A stretch of 64,000 nt of DNA from Candidatus Thorarchaeota archaeon (GTDB lineage Archaea; Asgardarchaeota; Thorarchaeia; Thorarchaeales; Thorarchaeaceae): NCBI GenBank assembly GCA_019057475.1, contig DXJO01000010.1:192001-256000 (forward strand), read 5' to 3'. A model generated the notes under the pieces. It saw only the letters and a list, made by a program, of their open reading frames with translations. It had not been told where the DNA came from and made no database searches. Both the position numbers and the translations under genes were made by a program. This document shows, piece by piece, positions 12,741 through 18,294 of the stretch (position 1 is the first letter of the stretch; each line of letters begins with the position of its first letter).

Positions 12741-14456
12741 TTACACTGAGAAGTTGAAGAAGAGAGTTGCGCCGTTCTTCATGTTCGGCACATATGCGCG
12801 ACGATAGGGTCCGAATAAATCATGAACACCTGAGTTGAGCATCCATTCAATCCAAGACCAGGACGCCTCTTGGCCAAGCTTGTTTTCAGCATATTGTCCA
12901 AACACCCAGCTCAAATAGCGCTCAACCTCAAGAATGGTAGCAAGGAGATCTTTCAGTTCATCGCCCTTTGCAGTCTTGCGCTGCCCTCTCAGGTCTTCCA
13001 GTGATACATTCAGCTCCTGATGACTCTCCAGTATCACACTCAGAAGAGACCGGATACTCTCGTTCATTTCATCATGTTTAGCCTTCTTTCTGAAGCGACC
13101 GATTGTCCCCAGCAAACGGAACATTTCTGGTTTGTGAAGCGGTGATAGGCCTTTTTCCTTCAATACTCCCGCAAGACTCTCGCTCCAAGGAGTATTGAAG
13201 TAGGCTCGCGGATACTTCAGAAATGCGGGGAAGGGCGCAGGCAGTGCTTTCGCAATTGGAATGACTTGTGCGTAATAGGCGGTTTCACCGCTTCCTCCCA
13301 CATGAGCGACGATGGGCAAGATCGTGTCGACAATCAATTGTCTGGAGTCAACTCTGGGTGATAGGTAACGTCCCACTTCACTAAGAAACGGTTCATCAGC
13401 CGATGTTTCAATCTCGACATTTTGACCGCACGATGGACATCTGCCTGTCAACACAGCCTCTGTGCCCTTCTCCTTGTACAATAGCTCGGTCCTACTCCTA
13501 TTGCATTCTTTCTCAGGGCACTCGTAGTAGAATGGCACATAGTTGAGCTTTCTAGATCCGGCGCCTGGTCTGAATCCGCTCTTCACAATGAGGTCTGTTG
13601 CTCTCTCGTGAGTCTTAAGGAAAACATCTCTTTGCTTCTTGGCCAATATGAATTCCATTCCCTCAACCATTAGATCTCGGAACACCTCATCTGATGCCGG
13701 GATAATCGGGATACCCAAGTTCCCCTCGATATTCAGAAGTCGACCAATTATTTTCTGAGCCCAATCGCCAAGGGTTCTGGAGTTGACAAATCCCCAACGT
13801 GTAATTGCCAGCGCCTGTTCGAGCCTTTCTTCAAAGAGTGTTCGCACAGGTTTGTCGAGGGGCTTGAGAAGGGGTCTATAGCTATGTCGAAGCTTCTCTT
13901 CAATCGCGTTGTACCATTCAATCTCAGGCAGAGGGAGAACGCTGACAGGCGAGTGCTTATAGCCTCTTGGTACAGGAATGCTCAGAAGATTGCCTTCGGG
14001 TCCCATGTTTGGAGTTCTGATATTGATCAGTTCTGATTGAACGATATCATAGTCTGCAACGAAGAAGACCGGAACGACATCGAGTCCTTGCTGAACACCA
14101 AAACTGCTGATTCGTTCTGCTGTGATTGCCTTGTTGAGAATGTATGCGGGGCCTCCCATTACTACACTCTGGTGAGCCGCTTCGACAACTCCATTACCGA
14201 GTCGTTTGATGTTCTCTTCCACACTGGGGGTCAAACATGCAAGCCCACGATTGGCCTTAATCAATGTCTTTCGGAGCAGTTTCATTCTCTCGTCGGTATG
14301 CCAGAGTCTATCCTTGTATTCCGCAAGTATCTTCGGAAACTCTGACACGATCTCTCCCATCGTGACGATTGGAGAACCATAAAGATCAGCTGCAAGACGC
14401 GACTGTGTGCCGCTCCAGATGAACTCCTGATAGATACTCGTCACACCGGGTTTCAA
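12741..14456 (-). CDS. bshC: Bacillithiol biosynthesis cysteine-adding enzyme BshC-like protein
   Basis: HQSVVMGGPAYILNKAIT, PVFFVAD, and SPRVDSRQ..DTILP..AHVGGSGETAYYAQ parallel BshC motifs (GGPLY..K; PVFW; SPNV..RP...LP...VGGPGE.AY.AQ). C-terminal coiled coil. Co-oriented 17 bp downstream of bshA. Confidence 0.85.
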   Translation of the reverse strand: MKPGVTSIYQEFIWSGTQSRLAADLYGSPIVTMGEIVSEFPKILAEYKDRLWHTDERMKLLRKTLIKANRGLACLTPSVEENIKRLGNGVVEAAHQSVVMGGPAYILNKAITAERISSFGVQQGLDVVPVFFVADYDIVQSELINIRTPNMGPEGNLLSIPVPRGYKHSPVSVLPLPEIEWYNAIEEKLRHSYRPLLKPLDKPVRTLFEERLEQALAITRWGFVNSRTLGDWAQKIIGRLLNIEGNLGIPIIPASDEVFRDLMVEGMEFILAKKQRDVFLKTHERATDLIVKSGFRPGAGSRKLNYVPFYYECPEKECNRSRTELLYKEKGTEAVLTGRCPSCGQNVEIETSADEPFLSEVGRYLSPRVDSRQLIVDTILPIVAHVGGSGETAYYAQVIPIAKALPAPFPAFLKYPRAYFNTPWSESLAGVLKEKGLSPLHKPEMFRLLGTIGRFRKKAKHDEMNESIRSLLSVILESHQELNVSLEDLRGQRKTAKGDELKDLLATILEVERYLSWVFGQYAENKLGQEASWSWIEWMLNSGVHDLFGPYRRAYVPNMKNGATLFFNFSV

Positions 14457-14473
14457 GATACTCTCCTACCTTC

Positions 14474-15646
14474 CTATTTACTAATGACTTCCTCAAAGAT
14501 TTTTTCGTACTTGGGAACGATTGCCTTGGCTGCAAAGTGTTCCTCCACACGTTTTCTGCCGGCAGCAGACATCTGCTCCCTCATTTTCTCTTTGTCCAAG
14601 AGCTCGATGACTGCATCCGCGAACTCCTCGATTTCGAAGCCTTTGGTTACAATCCCATCCTTGCCGGGTCGAACCAGCTCTGGAATACCTCCTGCGGGAG
14701 TAGTGACCACTGGCAGACCGCACGACATAGACTCCAAGAGAACAAGTGGCATGCCTTCTAGCATCGAGTTGAGCAGGAATGCATCCGCAGAGCACATAAT
14801 CTCCAGCATGTTGCTCTTTATCCCCAGAAGATGAACATTATTGCAGAGGTCAAGTGCATCTATTCGTCTCTCAACCTCTATTCTTGTTGGACCATCGCCG
14901 GCAATCAGAAGACGGGTGTTCGGATGATGGTCGACAACTATCCGCATGATGTCAACCAGCTCGACGACTCGTTTCACCTTGCGGAAGTTTGACGCATGAA
15001 GCAGGACTATCTCTCCGGGATTAATCTCTTGGGCTTCTTCTGTACTCCTTACAGAAACGCAACCACTCTCAACTACCAGTTTGAAGTCGCTCTTTGGCGC
15101 GAATTTTTTCACGTCGATGAAGTTCGGTATCACATGTACTTCCCGTGTGATTCCCAATTCCCCGACTATCTTCTTCTTGAGGAACTCGGATACTGTTGTC
15201 ACGGCATCAGCGTTTTGAACGACATGTTCGACCACTGGCCTATAGGCAGGGTCCTGACCGAGTGAGTGCACATCTGAACCATGTAGAGTGACCACGTAGG
15301 GGATGCCACATATTTCCCGGGCCATGTAAGCTGACATTGCGTGTGGTATTGCGTAGTGTGAGTGAATAAGATCAAGCTTAGAATCCTTGGCCACCTTGAC
15401 TATCTTTGATGTCAATGCCATTGTATATGGTGGTCCCACATCCTTGAACAACGGGTAGTCAAAGCGGTCGACAAGGTCCACGTGGACCCCTCGCGTTTGC
15501 TCCCACATCAACGAGAACGGGCGCTCGTAGGTGATGAAGTGCATCACATGCCCTCGATGTGTCAAATGTTGTCCAAGGCGGGTTGCCAGATATCCGGACC
15601 CTCCCATCGAGGGATATAGATTCACACCAATGTTCAAGCGTGTCAC
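14474..15646 (-). CDS. bshA: N-acetyl-alpha-D-glucosaminyl L-malate synthase (GT4)
   Basis: IGVNLYPSMGGSG..ATRLG, HSHYAIPHA, TLHGSD, HASNFRKVKR are diagnostic of BshA. GT4 motif EGMPLVLLE. Confidence 0.93.
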   Translation of the reverse strand: MTRLNIGVNLYPSMGGSGYLATRLGQHLTHRGHVMHFITYERPFSLMWEQTRGVHVDLVDRFDYPLFKDVGPPYTMALTSKIVKVAKDSKLDLIHSHYAIPHAMSAYMAREICGIPYVVTLHGSDVHSLGQDPAYRPVVEHVVQNADAVTTVSEFLKKKIVGELGITREVHVIPNFIDVKKFAPKSDFKLVVESGCVSVRSTEEAQEINPGEIVLLHASNFRKVKRVVELVDIMRIVVDHHPNTRLLIAGDGPTRIEVERRIDALDLCNNVHLLGIKSNMLEIMCSADAFLLNSMLEGMPLVLLESMSCGLPVVTTPAGGIPELVRPGKDGIVTKGFEIEEFADAVIELLDKEKMREQMSAAGRKRVEEHFAAKAIVPKYEKIFEEVISK

Positions 15647-15750
15647 CTTTTCAGTAGGGTTGTCTTATGCCTGTGGGCCTCGTGGTTTGAGCGGTTCAAG
15701 ACTGACCAGCGGGCCAAAGCTTGATTAGACACCAACCTGAACACGAGGAT

Positions 15751-16419
15751 ATGAGTGATGCGGATGAGGCCTCCATGCTCGTTGTAGTTGCTCATCCTGA
15801 TGATGAGTGTCTTGGAGCGGGCGGCACAATCAGAAGACATGCGGAGCTCGGGGTTCCTGTGAGTGTTCTATGTCTCACTGGGAATGATGAGCGTAATGCC
15901 GAACTGAATAAGGCCTGCAAAACGCTTGGTGTGGCAGAGGTGCACACCAGTATGCGCGGCGACTTTGATGTTGACTGGTCACTCTCACATGAAATCGCTC
16001 AGACAATCCTCCGGACCCGACCCAGAATCATAATCACTCATTCTGTTGAGGACTACAACCGTAATCATAATCTCTGTGCGCAAATCGTAATGGAGGCAGT
16101 GGAATGGGCTTCCCACGTCACAATGTTTGATGATGCCCATAGGGTTGAGCGCATATACAACATGGAGATCAACTCCCTTCTTTCGCGTCCAAGCATCATG
16201 GTCGATGTTTCTGACTGCTACGATACTGCTGTACAAGCTCTTAAGCAGCACGAATCCCAGATGTCTAAGGCAAGCGGCTTTTACCCCAATTTATACGACG
16301 CCCGCACTCGCCTTCGTGGAGTGCAAGCTGCCTGTAACCGAGCTGAGGCCTTTGGTCTATCACCTTTAAGACATGCAGGCCCATTTTATCCTGTCAACAG
16401 CGTCCGAAGTTTGATCTAG
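15751..16419 (+). CDS. bshB: PIG-L/LmbE family deacetylase (BshB-like)
   Basis: VVAHPDDE Zn motif, HESQ, RG....AEAF. Divergent from bshA. ORF track start 15721; ATG 15751 is likelier. Confidence 0.8.
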   Translation: MSDADEASMLVVVAHPDDECLGAGGTIRRHAELGVPVSVLCLTGNDERNAELNKACKTLGVAEVHTSMRGDFDVDWSLSHEIAQTILRTRPRIIITHSVEDYNRNHNLCAQIVMEAVEWASHVTMFDDAHRVERIYNMEINSLLSRPSIMVDVSDCYDTAVQALKQHESQMSKASGFYPNLYDARTRLRGVQAACNRAEAFGLSPLRHAGPFYPVNSVRSLI

Positions 16420-16437
16420 CCTTTGGCAATCATTCTT

Positions 16438-16830
16438 CTACTGACCGGTAGCATCAGTTTTTCTTCTTCTAGCTGCAAGAAGGCTCTTCAACTCGCCCAT
16501 GAGCCCGCCTCCACCTCCAGTTGGTGGGGGTCGTGCTGAGGGCGCCTTGGCTATCGGGGCACTAGCCATATCGGGGGCAGCAGAAGCAGCAGCTGAGGCT
16601 GCTGACGGGGGCGCAACTCCGCGACTAGCTATTTGGTTGACCTTCGAATCGAGTCCGTCGAGTTTTGTTTCAAGGTCATATAGGCGCGTATCCAGGCCTC
16701 CTATCGCATCCACTAGCTTCTTTGTAATGGTGCTGACGACATCCCCTAGGGCTCGAAGCTTCTCTTCAGTGGGATCTTTGAGAGCCCATTCGAATTCTTC
16801 AAGGATGAAATCCTCGTCGTCACCAGACAT
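16438..16830 (-). CDS. Small coiled-coil protein with Ena/VASP FAB-like (WH2-related) C-terminal motif; candidate actin regulator
   Basis: Acidic DDEDFILEEFEW, heptad repeat LDTRLYDLETKLDGLDSKVNQI, Ala/Pro linker, then PPPTGGGGGLMGELKSLLAARRRKT. Confidence 0.7.
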   Translation of the reverse strand: MSGDDEDFILEEFEWALKDPTEEKLRALGDVVSTITKKLVDAIGGLDTRLYDLETKLDGLDSKVNQIASRGVAPPSAASAAASAAPDMASAPIAKAPSARPPPTGGGGGLMGELKSLLAARRRKTDATGQ

Positions 16831-16908
16831 ATAGCTTAAGCCCCTTTTTCTTGTGTGAGGTTAATAGTTTCGCTATAAACATTGTCTATATAGAAGCGCT
16901 TCATTGCA

Positions 16909-18294
16909 TCATAAAGACTCCACAATTCTCTCAACAGTGCCTTTTGCATCCAACATGATTGACTCAGCAATCTCTTGGGTCGGAGCCTCGCAGGTCACCC
17001 TAATGACTGGCTCTGTCCCTGAAGGCCTGACAAGCACCCAGCCCTCTTCGAGGAAAACACCAAGACCGTCAACGGTGAGAATATCCACAGTCTTCTTCAT
17101 GGCCTCAGGCAGCGCCTTGGCCAGCTCTTTCATGGCGGCTTCCTTCTTGTTGTTCGGACACTCCACTTTGGCTTTAAGGAGCGGATAGACTGGAATCTCT
17201 GACATCAAGTCCCCGAAGCTGCGTTTCGTTTTTGCCATCAGTTCGAGTACTTTGCATGATGTAAGAAATGGATCGGGCGCTTCGTGAAACTCCGGATGAA
17301 TGAATACACCACAGGCTTCACCGCCAAAGATGGCATTGGTTTCTTGCATTTTGATAGCCACCTGAATATCCCCTACTGGCGTCCTAACCGTTTCTCCACC
17401 AGCCGCTTTGACGGTTTCATCCAAGACTCTGGAACTGTCCACTGTGGTAACGATAATCTTGTTCTTGGAGTTCTTGAGAATGTGGCGTGCAATGAGTGCA
17501 ATAACTCTATCACCCCTCACAACCTCCCCGGACTCGGTCACAAAGACAACGCGATCAGCGTCCCCATCGTGGGCTATGCCAAAGTCCGCGCCGGTCTTCC
17601 TAATCAAGCTCACGAGGTCTCCAAGAGACTCCTCATCGGGCTCAGATCTTCTTCCTGGGAAATGGCCATCTGTCTGCCCGTTGATTGTCACCATCTTGCA
17701 TCCAAGCTCTCTCATCAGATATGGTGTAAGGACACAGCCTGCGCCGTTTCCCGGGTCAACGATAATCTTGAATTCCCTTGATTTTATGAGGTCTGCATCA
17801 CAGACAGCGAGAATCTCATTGATATGACGGTCAACAGCGGTTTCCAACTTCCTGTCGGTTCCCAGCTGGTTCCATTCAGCAATCTGAAATTCCTTGGAGT
17901 TGTAGATCTCCTCAAGGCGCGCCTCCTCTGCCTGCGTGTAGCCCATGCTTGACCTCGACCAGAACTTCAAGCCAGTGTACTCGGGTGGATTGTGAGACGC
18001 TGTTACCATGACGCCGGTGTCATAGCCGTGGTACTTTGTCATGAATGCCAGAGTTGGAGTGGGGATGAGACCTGCTCTGACAACATTCACTCCTGTTGAC
18101 ATTATTCCTGCCGCAAGGGAGTCCTCCACCATGGGGCTTGTGGTTCGTGCATCGTGAGCGAGAAGAACCGTTCCGCTGCCCAAGTATGTTCCGAGAGCTT
18201 TGCCTAGTTCAATGGCCATGTCCAGCTTGAACTCAGTACCGTAGATCTTTCTCACACCAGTTGTTCCGAAGAGATTTCCTGTCATCCTTCTCAC
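16909..18294 (-). CDS. glmM: Phosphoglucosamine mutase / phosphomannomutase
   Basis: LFGTTGVR, TASHNP (phospho-Ser), DGDADR (metal), GGE and VRPSGTEP. Confidence 0.9.
   Translation of the reverse strand: MRRMTGNLFGTTGVRKIYGTEFKLDMAIELGKALGTYLGSGTVLLAHDARTTSPMVEDSLAAGIMSTGVNVVRAGLIPTPTLAFMTKYHGYDTGVMVTASHNPPEYTGLKFWSRSSMGYTQAEEARLEEIYNSKEFQIAEWNQLGTDRKLETAVDRHINEILAVCDADLIKSREFKIIVDPGNGAGCVLTPYLMRELGCKMVTINGQTDGHFPGRRSEPDEESLGDLVSLIRKTGADFGIAHDGDADRVVFVTESGEVVRGDRVIALIARHILKNSKNKIIVTTVDSSRVLDETVKAAGGETVRTPVGDIQVAIKMQETNAIFGGEACGVFIHPEFHEAPDPFLTSCKVLELMAKTKRSFGDLMSEIPVYPLLKAKVECPNNKKEAAMKELAKALPEAMKKTVDILTVDGLGVFLEEGWVLVRPSGTEPVIRVTCEAPTQEIAESIMLDAKGTVERIVESL

Follow-up and report, generated by a model that had tools for sequence, protein, structure and literature searches.

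P0001 of a Thorarchaeote: a member of an unnamed Asgard coiled-coil family with a conserved tail helix and a possible actin partner

The stretch of DNA analysed here (the window) comprises 64,000 nucleotides of contig DXJO01000010.1 from a Thorarchaeote genome with a completeness of 96%. At window positions 16438-16830, on the minus strand, it carries an open reading frame (ORF) with an ATG start that encodes 130 amino acids followed by a stop, referred to here as P0001. This is the sole long ORF at 16438-16830 with conserved homologues. The gene is genuine and strongly conserved, and it belongs to a so far unnamed Asgard-wide family. We consider, with a probability of roughly 0.4, that P0001 forms an oligomeric scaffold and docks on actin through a tail helix carried on a tether. 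An initial annotation, made from the letters of the sequence, had proposed an Ena/VASP-like actin assembly factor with an acidic N-terminus, a coil, a linker and a distinctive C-terminus. The ORF and all of these features are present as described, and the interpretation as a whole is partly supported.

The P0001 gene, its protein and its family

The AlphaFold2 model of P0001, built on 39 homologues, contains helices at residues 4-18, 22-69 and 110-127, while residues 72-108 are disordered (predicted local distance difference test score, pLDDT, <50). The N-terminus (MSGDDEDFILEEFEW) is acidic and ends in DFILEEFEW, and the C-terminal stretch, residues 105-124, reads GGGGLMGELKSLLAARRRKT. As read from the sequence, the helix at residues 22-69 has its hydrophobic residues in an a/d spacing whose register shifts at G44-G45; a conserved helix (residues 20-45) followed by a coil of ~3.5 heptads (residues 46-70) is therefore the better description. 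In PDB profile searches, this coil is best matched by coiled coils that form trimers (those of reovirus sigma-1, of the stalks of trimeric autotransporters and of HA2), a weak hint that the coil of P0001 may be trimeric as well. The gene and its parts were assigned as follows.

16438..16830, minus strand: complete coding sequence of P0001, a member of the Asgard 'ELK-tail' coiled-coil family (ORF, 143 homologues, alignments)
16774..16830, minus strand: residues 1-19, acidic-aromatic N-terminal helix DDEDFILEEFEWALKD (Thorarchaeota alignment, AlphaFold2 helix 4-18)
16696..16773, minus strand: residues 20-45, conserved helix PTEEKLRALGDVVSTITKKLVDAIGG, the family-defining N-domain (conserved columns, hhalign to the long forms of genome family f8)
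16621..16695, minus strand: residues 46-70, coiled coil of ~3.5 heptads LDTRLYDLETKLDGLDSKVNQIASR (pLDDT >90, a/d spacing)
16510..16620, minus strand: residues 71-107, disordered Ala/Pro/Ser-rich tether ending in ARPPPTGGGG (pLDDT <50; variable length and sequence in orthologues)
16456..16509, minus strand: residues 108-125, putative C-terminal docking helix GLMGELKSLLAARRRKTD with the ELK motif and a basic cluster (conservation, AlphaFold2 helix 110-127)

A word-indexed search retrieved the 143 homologues, nearly all of which are annotated as 'hypothetical protein'. Homologues with a named taxon are mostly from Thorarchaeota, and the family members with a named source are all Asgard (Thorarchaeota, Helarchaeota, Hodarchaeota and 'Promethearchaeota'). 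In a six-frame profile scan of 400 Asgard genomes (E<=0.01), the family was matched in 305 genomes and in 81 of the 85 genomes of the source genome's own family. Full-length matches with E-values of 1e-10 to 1e-15 were observed in families holding closed genomes of 4.4 Mb and 6.0 Mb. The ESM Atlas look-alikes of the family are only unnamed Asgard clusters, and no description of the family was found in the searchable literature.

Alignment of the Thorarchaeota members revealed two conserved blocks, DFIMEEFEWALKDPTEEKLRxLGEVVSIIT at the N-terminus and MMGELKxLLAARRRK at the C-terminus. The initial annotation had predicted that the acidic-aromatic N-block and LMxELxxxLxxRR would be the conserved parts, which is what this alignment contains. 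Invariant residues in Thorarchaeota are F13, W15, A16, L17 and D19 in the N-terminus and M111, E113, L114, K115, L117, L118, A120 and R121 in the tail. Across Asgard archaea only a [DE][DE][FY] core is kept in the N-terminus, and W15 is conserved in Thorarchaeota alone. No other element of the family is as well conserved as the tail motif: the E-L-K core (E113, L114, K115) and the adjoining hydrophobic positions are near-invariant across 37 diverse members, within a family-wide core hh-x-E-L-K-x-h-h-x-x-basic, and such conservation fits a specific protein contact. P0001 has the family N-block pattern ([DE][DE][FY]...P..E+h..L..hh followed by the coiled coil) as well as the disordered low-complexity tether and the C-terminal ELK helix, and its tail scores 30.8 bits on the family position-specific scoring matrix (PSSM).

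Translation of non-Thorarchaeota loci gave the same layout, with an N-terminus M-AEEF...P-KE-VEGLADVIEKIM, a coil, a tether and a C-terminus NP-SLRG-IM-ELK-LF-KRR. The tethers of these proteins often carry two or three PPPPPG tracts. Runs of at least four prolines occur at least once in 35 of 58 non-Thorarchaeota orthologues and twice or more in 14 of the 58, and such a run is present in just 4 of the 121 matches of the Thorarchaeota-type search. Real polyproline tracts are confined to the non-Thorarchaeota lineages, where they support the initial annotation; in P0001, as in Thorarchaeota generally, the linker is Ala/Pro-rich and not polyproline.

Variant arrangements of the family were also observed. 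Helarchaeota encode two adjacent paralogues (G124:C202:85-396 and 602-925; P0291/P0301 and P0288/P0306) with the tail variant ALQSELKALFAKRK. In P0259 (413 amino acids; L052 1519-2760; CAXCZH010002204.1), an Arf-family GTPase is fused to the helix, coil, linker and ELK tail. This protein is a singleton on a 3.5-kb contig, and a gene-calling artefact is possible. An exhaustive profile search identified this one Arf-GTPase fusion and one form of 184 amino acids amid coiled-coil noise, and no longer fused form with a Loki-type tail was found at E<=10.

A longer counterpart of ~280-320 residues was identified in 27 of the 31 genomes of genome family f8 (280-340 amino acids across the long forms of f8 and f10 together). 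In hhalign, the N-domain of the f8 long form matched the family profile with a probability of 94.9% (E 4.7e-8), and P0001 was the only match when the long form was searched back in the source genome. The long-form loci are L109/L110 (P0308), L112 (P0313) and L122 (P0312), represented in alignment A7, together with L142 and L143. The long forms carry Pro/Gly/Ala repeats (APNLSAAP, GGTPSGPNLGG) and, in f8 and f10, two or three tandem 17-residue repeats placed between Pro/Gly-rich spacers; all 27 listed repeat instances can be aligned ungapped and consist of a short helix that leads into L-[KQT]-K-[AV]. Behind the tandem repeats come the ELK/basic helix and an acidic stretch containing Phe, and the C-terminus is ELK-like once more. 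In f8, the blocks after the APNLSAAP repeats are, in order, LMKAAANLQKAP, DIQDVRAGL[TK]KVDPDEHRKER, ALNMEVKDALAKRKSR, the acidic stretch with Phe and the C-terminal ALQGELRDAFSSLL, and the f10 form includes three tandem GGGLVSxGALxxALANLKKAP repeats. This layout recalls tandem-WH2 or V-C-A modules and may serve as a pattern-level lead.

The P0001 gene is enclosed by a bacillithiol-type locus spanning window positions 12741-18294, with the following neighbouring features.

12741-14456, minus strand: BshC-like gene
14474-15646, minus strand: GT4 BshA-like gene
15721-16419, plus strand: PIG-L/BshB-like gene, convergent with the P0001 gene
16831..16908, minus strand: spacer of 78 bp between the upstream phosphohexomutase gene and the P0001 gene (read from the sequence)
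16841-16844, minus strand: G-run in the 78-bp spacer (read from the sequence)
16874-16879, minus strand: TATA-like TTTATA, a candidate promoter element in the 78-bp spacer
16909-18294, minus strand: phosphohexomutase gene, upstream of the P0001 gene

Each of the 30 Thorarchaeota loci examined has the order mutase, small gene and bshB-like gene, which none of the 14 non-Thorarchaeota loci shares. A metatranscriptome contig of 247 nucleotides, from marine sediment and a related organism, aligns over 166 bases to 16485-16650, in the region of the ORF that encodes linker and coil; the alignment contains 10 mismatches and 9 gap letters. This constitutes weak evidence of transcription, as DNA carry-over is possible.

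Actin as a candidate partner of the tail helix

Asgard archaea use a eukaryote-like actin for protrusions and crawling, and polyproline tracts are profilin ligands in eukaryotes. The source genome encodes one actin-family gene, gelsolin-domain genes and a weak profilin match, and no match to ARPC4 was found in it. A concern raised with the initial annotation, that orthologues might occur mainly in actin-less lineages, is not borne out: the family occurs in Asgard genomes, and actin is encoded in 60 of the 61 that were sampled. Profilins and gelsolins are the only regulators of Asgard actin named in the literature up to late 2026, and no nucleator, elongation factor or bundler comparable to formins, Ena/VASP or WASP is reported for Asgard archaea; a 2026 Nature paper mentions formins and Ena/VASP solely as polymerases of filaments in the migration machinery of Metazoa and Amoebozoa. 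A VASP polyproline peptide is bound weakly by one Thorarchaeota and one Heimdall profilin (PMC8410842). In co-immunoprecipitation (co-IP) of Lokiactin from Lokiarchaeum ossiferum, profilin, gelsolins and an Arf GTPase were enriched (bioRxiv 10.1101/2025.11.30.690169).

In human VASP, the GAB is found at residues 223-239 (APGLAAAIAGAKLRKVS), the F-actin-binding segment (FAB) at residues 259-278 and the tetramerising coil at residues 343-380 (PMC10340426). The FAB sequence given in the initial annotation agrees with the one printed there (PMC10340426). Its count of 12 ungapped identities over 20 positions with the P0001 tail is likewise correct, and these include the G-run and the RRRK cluster. 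The likeness was compared with chance by means of 15-column PSSMs from the family alignment, applied to 11 million random residues (about the size of the human proteome) and to the ORFs of the source genome. On the Thorarchaeota-only PSSM, the VASP FAB scored 22.6 bits, a value reached by 0 of the 11 million random windows (maximum 20.9).

If one partner of the tail has to be named, actin is the leading, though tentative, candidate. It is favoured by the likeness of the tail to the FAB, by the polyproline tethers, by the tandem helix-LxK repeats found in the long forms and by the structurally solved precedents arcadin-2 and ParR. The recurrence of the ELK tail on otherwise unrelated ribbon-helix-helix-like proteins of integrated elements, which have the ParR layout, also counts in its favour. 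In the mechanism that we infer, which extends to the oligomeric state, the identity of the partner and the effect on polymerisation, the conserved N-terminal helical block and the short coil would oligomerise P0001, probably as a trimer. The flexible low-complexity tether would present the C-terminal amphipathic helix, of ~2.5 turns and with a basic end (hh-x-E-L-K-x-h-h-x-x-R/K-R). This helix may act as a docking peptide on Asgard actin, either in the hydrophobic barbed-end groove or on the filament side, in the mode of the VASP FAB, WH2 motifs, arcadin-2 and ParR tails. The oligomer could then tether, bundle or feed several actin subunits or filaments.

Several results weigh against actin docking. 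The VASP FAB scores 17.4 bits on the all-family PSSM, which 8 windows per 11 million reach, and 13.5 bits on the non-Thorarchaeota PSSM, which 74 windows per 11 million reach. At the level of these matrices, the FAB likeness is unusual for the Thorarchaeota variant only and near chance against the family consensus. Because it weakens toward that consensus, convergence or coincidence would account for it better than common descent; the likeness to Ena/VASP is probably one of functional analogy or convergence, and homology is unlikely. The VASP GAB scores 6.1 bits on the repeat PSSM, which corresponds to chance. Scanned against Pfam, full-length P0001, 37 family members, 27 tail peptides and segments of the long forms gave no match to WH2, VASP or WASP and only sub-threshold coiled-coil families; with whole proteins and motif peptides, WH2 (PF02205) was not matched even at E<=10. 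Similarly, PDB sequence and profile searches with P0001, the tail, the family, the long-form segments and the repeat profile yielded no actin-binding peptide and no WH2, VASP or thymosin chain. Genome families f4 (0/3) and f29 (0/4) had no family match in the 400-genome scan, though sampled genomes of both encode actin. The gene neighbourhoods of the family contain no cytoskeletal link in the 30 Thorarchaeota and 14 non-Thorarchaeota loci, and the synteny of the P0001 gene is lineage-specific and uninformative on function. According to one report, Loki profilins do not bind the VASP polyproline peptide (PMC8410842). The L. ossiferum orthologue has 152 amino acids and a calculated mass of 16.14 kDa, and no protein of 16.1 kDa, sought by mass only, is present among the Lokiactin co-IP rows at or above log2 1.14 (bioRxiv 10.1101/2025.11.30.690169), which is weak evidence against a low-affinity groove binder. 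Finally, actin binding by the P0001 tail is a prediction from sequence and analogy.

Rejected motifs, ELK-tailed mobile-element proteins and other possible partners

Several named motifs and families were compared with P0001. Membership in Ena/VASP, WH2 or WASP is not supported; apart from the FAB-like tail, the tested features of these families are lacking. P0001 has no EVH1 domain (no Pfam match, and a length of only 130 amino acids), no GAB (WH2-like, KLRK) upstream of the FAB-like motif and no LKK[TV] element. VASP_tetra has no Pfam match either; the coil of P0001 is N-terminal and its PDB look-alikes are trimeric. The acidic-Trp motif, which had been put forward as a WASP-type Arp2/3 binder, was discarded, given that W15 is found only in Thorarchaeota and lies in a predicted N-terminal helix, and that the source genome has one actin gene and no ARPC4 match. 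The best 'real' match of the tail in the PDB search, the N-terminus of twinfilin-2, has an E-value of 0.32 and corresponds to chance.

The MIM1 motif of ESCRT-III proteins has the C-terminal consensus (D/E)xxLxxRLxxL(K/R). A MIM1 identity of the tail is unlikely, as the charge pattern is reversed, with E in place of the MIM1 R. The PIP box consensus is Qxx[LIM]xx[FY][FY]; P0001 reads MGELKSLL, with Leu at position 7, and the Q is limited to a Helarchaeota subgroup. CCDC53/WASHC3 (PF10152) matched 5 of the 37 members below threshold, with E 5e-4 and 21 bits on P0308 (gathering score 24.6), and BLOC1_2 gave a sub-threshold Pfam match to the N-terminal helix and coil of the family. Since the N-region matches many unrelated trimeric coils, compositional similarity would be the simpler account of both.

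The tail-matrix scan of the source genome placed two neighbouring ORFs of another contig next after P0001, with 21.2 and 19.4 bits. These ELK-tailed, ribbon-helix-helix (RHH)-like ORFs are located at G000 contig C51:9810-11078 (L084 3308-4522, minus strand), in a region that also holds a phage-integrase/zinc-ribbon fragment. The RHH pattern of the 138-amino-acid ORF was recognised by eye, and Pfam gives only a weak DUF6290 match. RHH-like relatives were observed in another Thorarchaeota genome (G327:C277:12968-13282; L098 1498-1875) and as a pseudogene (G000:C43:12967-13248). The homologue and the pseudogene copy keep the ELK tail (LMQELKQVLEARKR, LNEELKAVFAKMRE; 20-23 bits), and the RHH-like protein tails ALMAELNAILAKRKE, SLMQELKTVIEKRKQ, ELMQELKQVLEARKR and ALNEELKAVFAKMRE reach 19-23 bits on the family PSSM. 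A short motif such as ELK that recurs on unrelated scaffolds is what would be expected of a peptide that docks on a host factor. Besides ParR, many antitoxins combine an RHH domain with a terminal helix, so the reuse of ELK does not name the partner, and for the RHH proteins an antitoxin-type tail would be an equally valid reading as a ParR-like one.

The strongest rival to actin docking, which we consider rather unlikely, is that the ELK helix docks on a conserved non-actin partner (a GTPase, a trafficking or ESCRT component, an unfoldase or a replication factor) and that P0001 is a multivalent non-cytoskeletal adaptor. The strict conservation of E-L-K would suit any such partner, as it indicates a protein contact without naming what is contacted. 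The reuse of the motif on mobile-element RHH proteins points the same way; such proteins often dock on host hubs or, in antitoxins, on the toxin. The singleton fusion of the module to an Arf-family GTPase is consistent with this possibility, as are the absence of a protein of the orthologue's mass among those enriched with Lokiactin and the lack of a statistical link to WH2. Nevertheless, no alternative partner is positively indicated: the ESCRT-III tails of the source genome (Snf7-family, MIM-like) score only ~5 bits on the ELK PSSM, P0001 departs from the PIP-box pattern and the Q is seen in the Helarchaeota subgroup only, and the Arf GTPase that co-purified with Lokiactin (38.1 kDa, L086) is without an ELK motif.

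The C-terminal helix could alternatively be a membrane-targeting amphipathic helix, making the protein a peripheral-membrane coiled-coil scaffold. In membrane anchors of the MinD and FtsA type, a basic amphipathic helix sits at the end of a flexible tether, a layout that P0001 resembles, and the net charge of its tail is +3 to +4. A HeliQuest-style discriminant D of 1.27-1.52 was obtained, near the threshold of 1.34 for possible lipid binders. However, the hydrophobic moment is modest (0.21-0.35), the mean hydrophobicity is low (0.14-0.24), and the hydrophobic face extends over only ~2.5 turns. An invariant glutamate and near-identical residues, where conservation of hydrophobicity would suffice, are atypical of lipid-binding helices, and an anchor would be less expected on DNA-binding RHH proteins, which makes this explanation improbable.

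True homology of the family to the eukaryotic EVH2 module of Ena/VASP or the V-C-A module of WASP-family proteins, or a role as their precursor, is very improbable. Such a relationship might be suggested by the 12/20 identities to the VASP FAB with G-run and RRRK, by the FAB score above all random windows on the Thorarchaeota PSSM and by the V-C-A-like order of helix-LxK[AV] repeats, ELK/basic helix and acidic stretch with Phe in the long forms. However, the similarity is highest in a single derived lineage and falls off toward the consensus of the family, whereas common ancestry would predict the reverse. In addition, the modules stand in a permuted order (coil N-terminal), EVH1, GAB and the tetramerisation domain are missing, no signal was found at the level of hidden Markov models (HMMs), and Ena/VASP has a restricted eukaryotic distribution.

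Small, abundant-looking and phylum-wide, the protein brings together FAB-like, Pro-rich and oligomerisation modules and is a concrete and easily expressed candidate actin regulator. Should it dock on actin, then actin factors of the multivalent 'tethered helix' type would predate eukaryotes or have arisen convergently. A bolder extension, which must be regarded as a long shot, is that this family, including its long forms with their tandem helix-LxK[AV] repeats, ELK/basic helices and acidic-aromatic tails, supplies the actin assembly machinery so far missing from Asgard archaea. It would act as an oligomeric polymerase or bundler, capture actin or profilin-actin via Pro-rich tethers and groove-binding helices, and have arisen independently of or ancestrally to WH2/EVH2/VCA, with integrated elements copying the ELK tail onto ParR-like RHH adaptors to ride host actin. 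If the partner is not actin, the ELK peptide would mark a different Asgard interaction hub. The ELK receptor is worth finding either way, since mobile elements have copied the peptide.

Comparison with named systems

With the EVH2 region of Ena/VASP, P0001 shares a coil, which in P0001 probably oligomerises as well, a Pro-rich region and the combination of G-run, amphipathic helix and RRRK that is present in VASP. In contrast to VASP, P0001 has these modules in a permuted order (coil at the N-terminus, motif at the C-terminus), and EVH1 and GAB are absent. The coil of P0001 resembles trimeric coils, whereas that of VASP is a right-handed tetramer, and no HMM-level similarity was detected between the two.

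The likeness to WH2/thymosin-beta (PF02205) lies in a short amphipathic helix with basic residues behind it, set in disordered, Pro-rich surroundings. The f8 and f10 long forms additionally resemble tandem-WH2 proteins in their two to three tandem helix-L-[KQT]-K-[AV] repeats. In canonical WH2, the spacing from helix to LxK is 2-3 residues longer than in these repeats.

ParR of the ParMRC system has an N-terminal RHH DNA-binding domain and a C-terminal helix that inserts in the ParM groove (PDB 4A62, PMC5173319). This combination of RHH and terminal helix is the architecture of the ELK-tailed Thorarchaeota element proteins, not that of P0001, and no ParM-like gene was seen beside the ELK-tailed RHH genes.

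In arcadin-2 of Pyrobaculum, a C-terminal helix is the sole contact with the hydrophobic groove of crenactin (PDB 5LY3, PMC5173319). No sequence relationship of P0001 to arcadin-2 was found, though none was specifically looked for. Arcadin-2 is encoded in the arcade cluster beside crenactin, whereas the P0001 gene is unlinked to actin, and it is a sequesterer or depolymeriser, unlike the tethering, bundling or feeding role considered for P0001. The two proteins are alike in being archaeal and in having a disordered tether that leads to an amphipathic helix at the extreme C-terminus.

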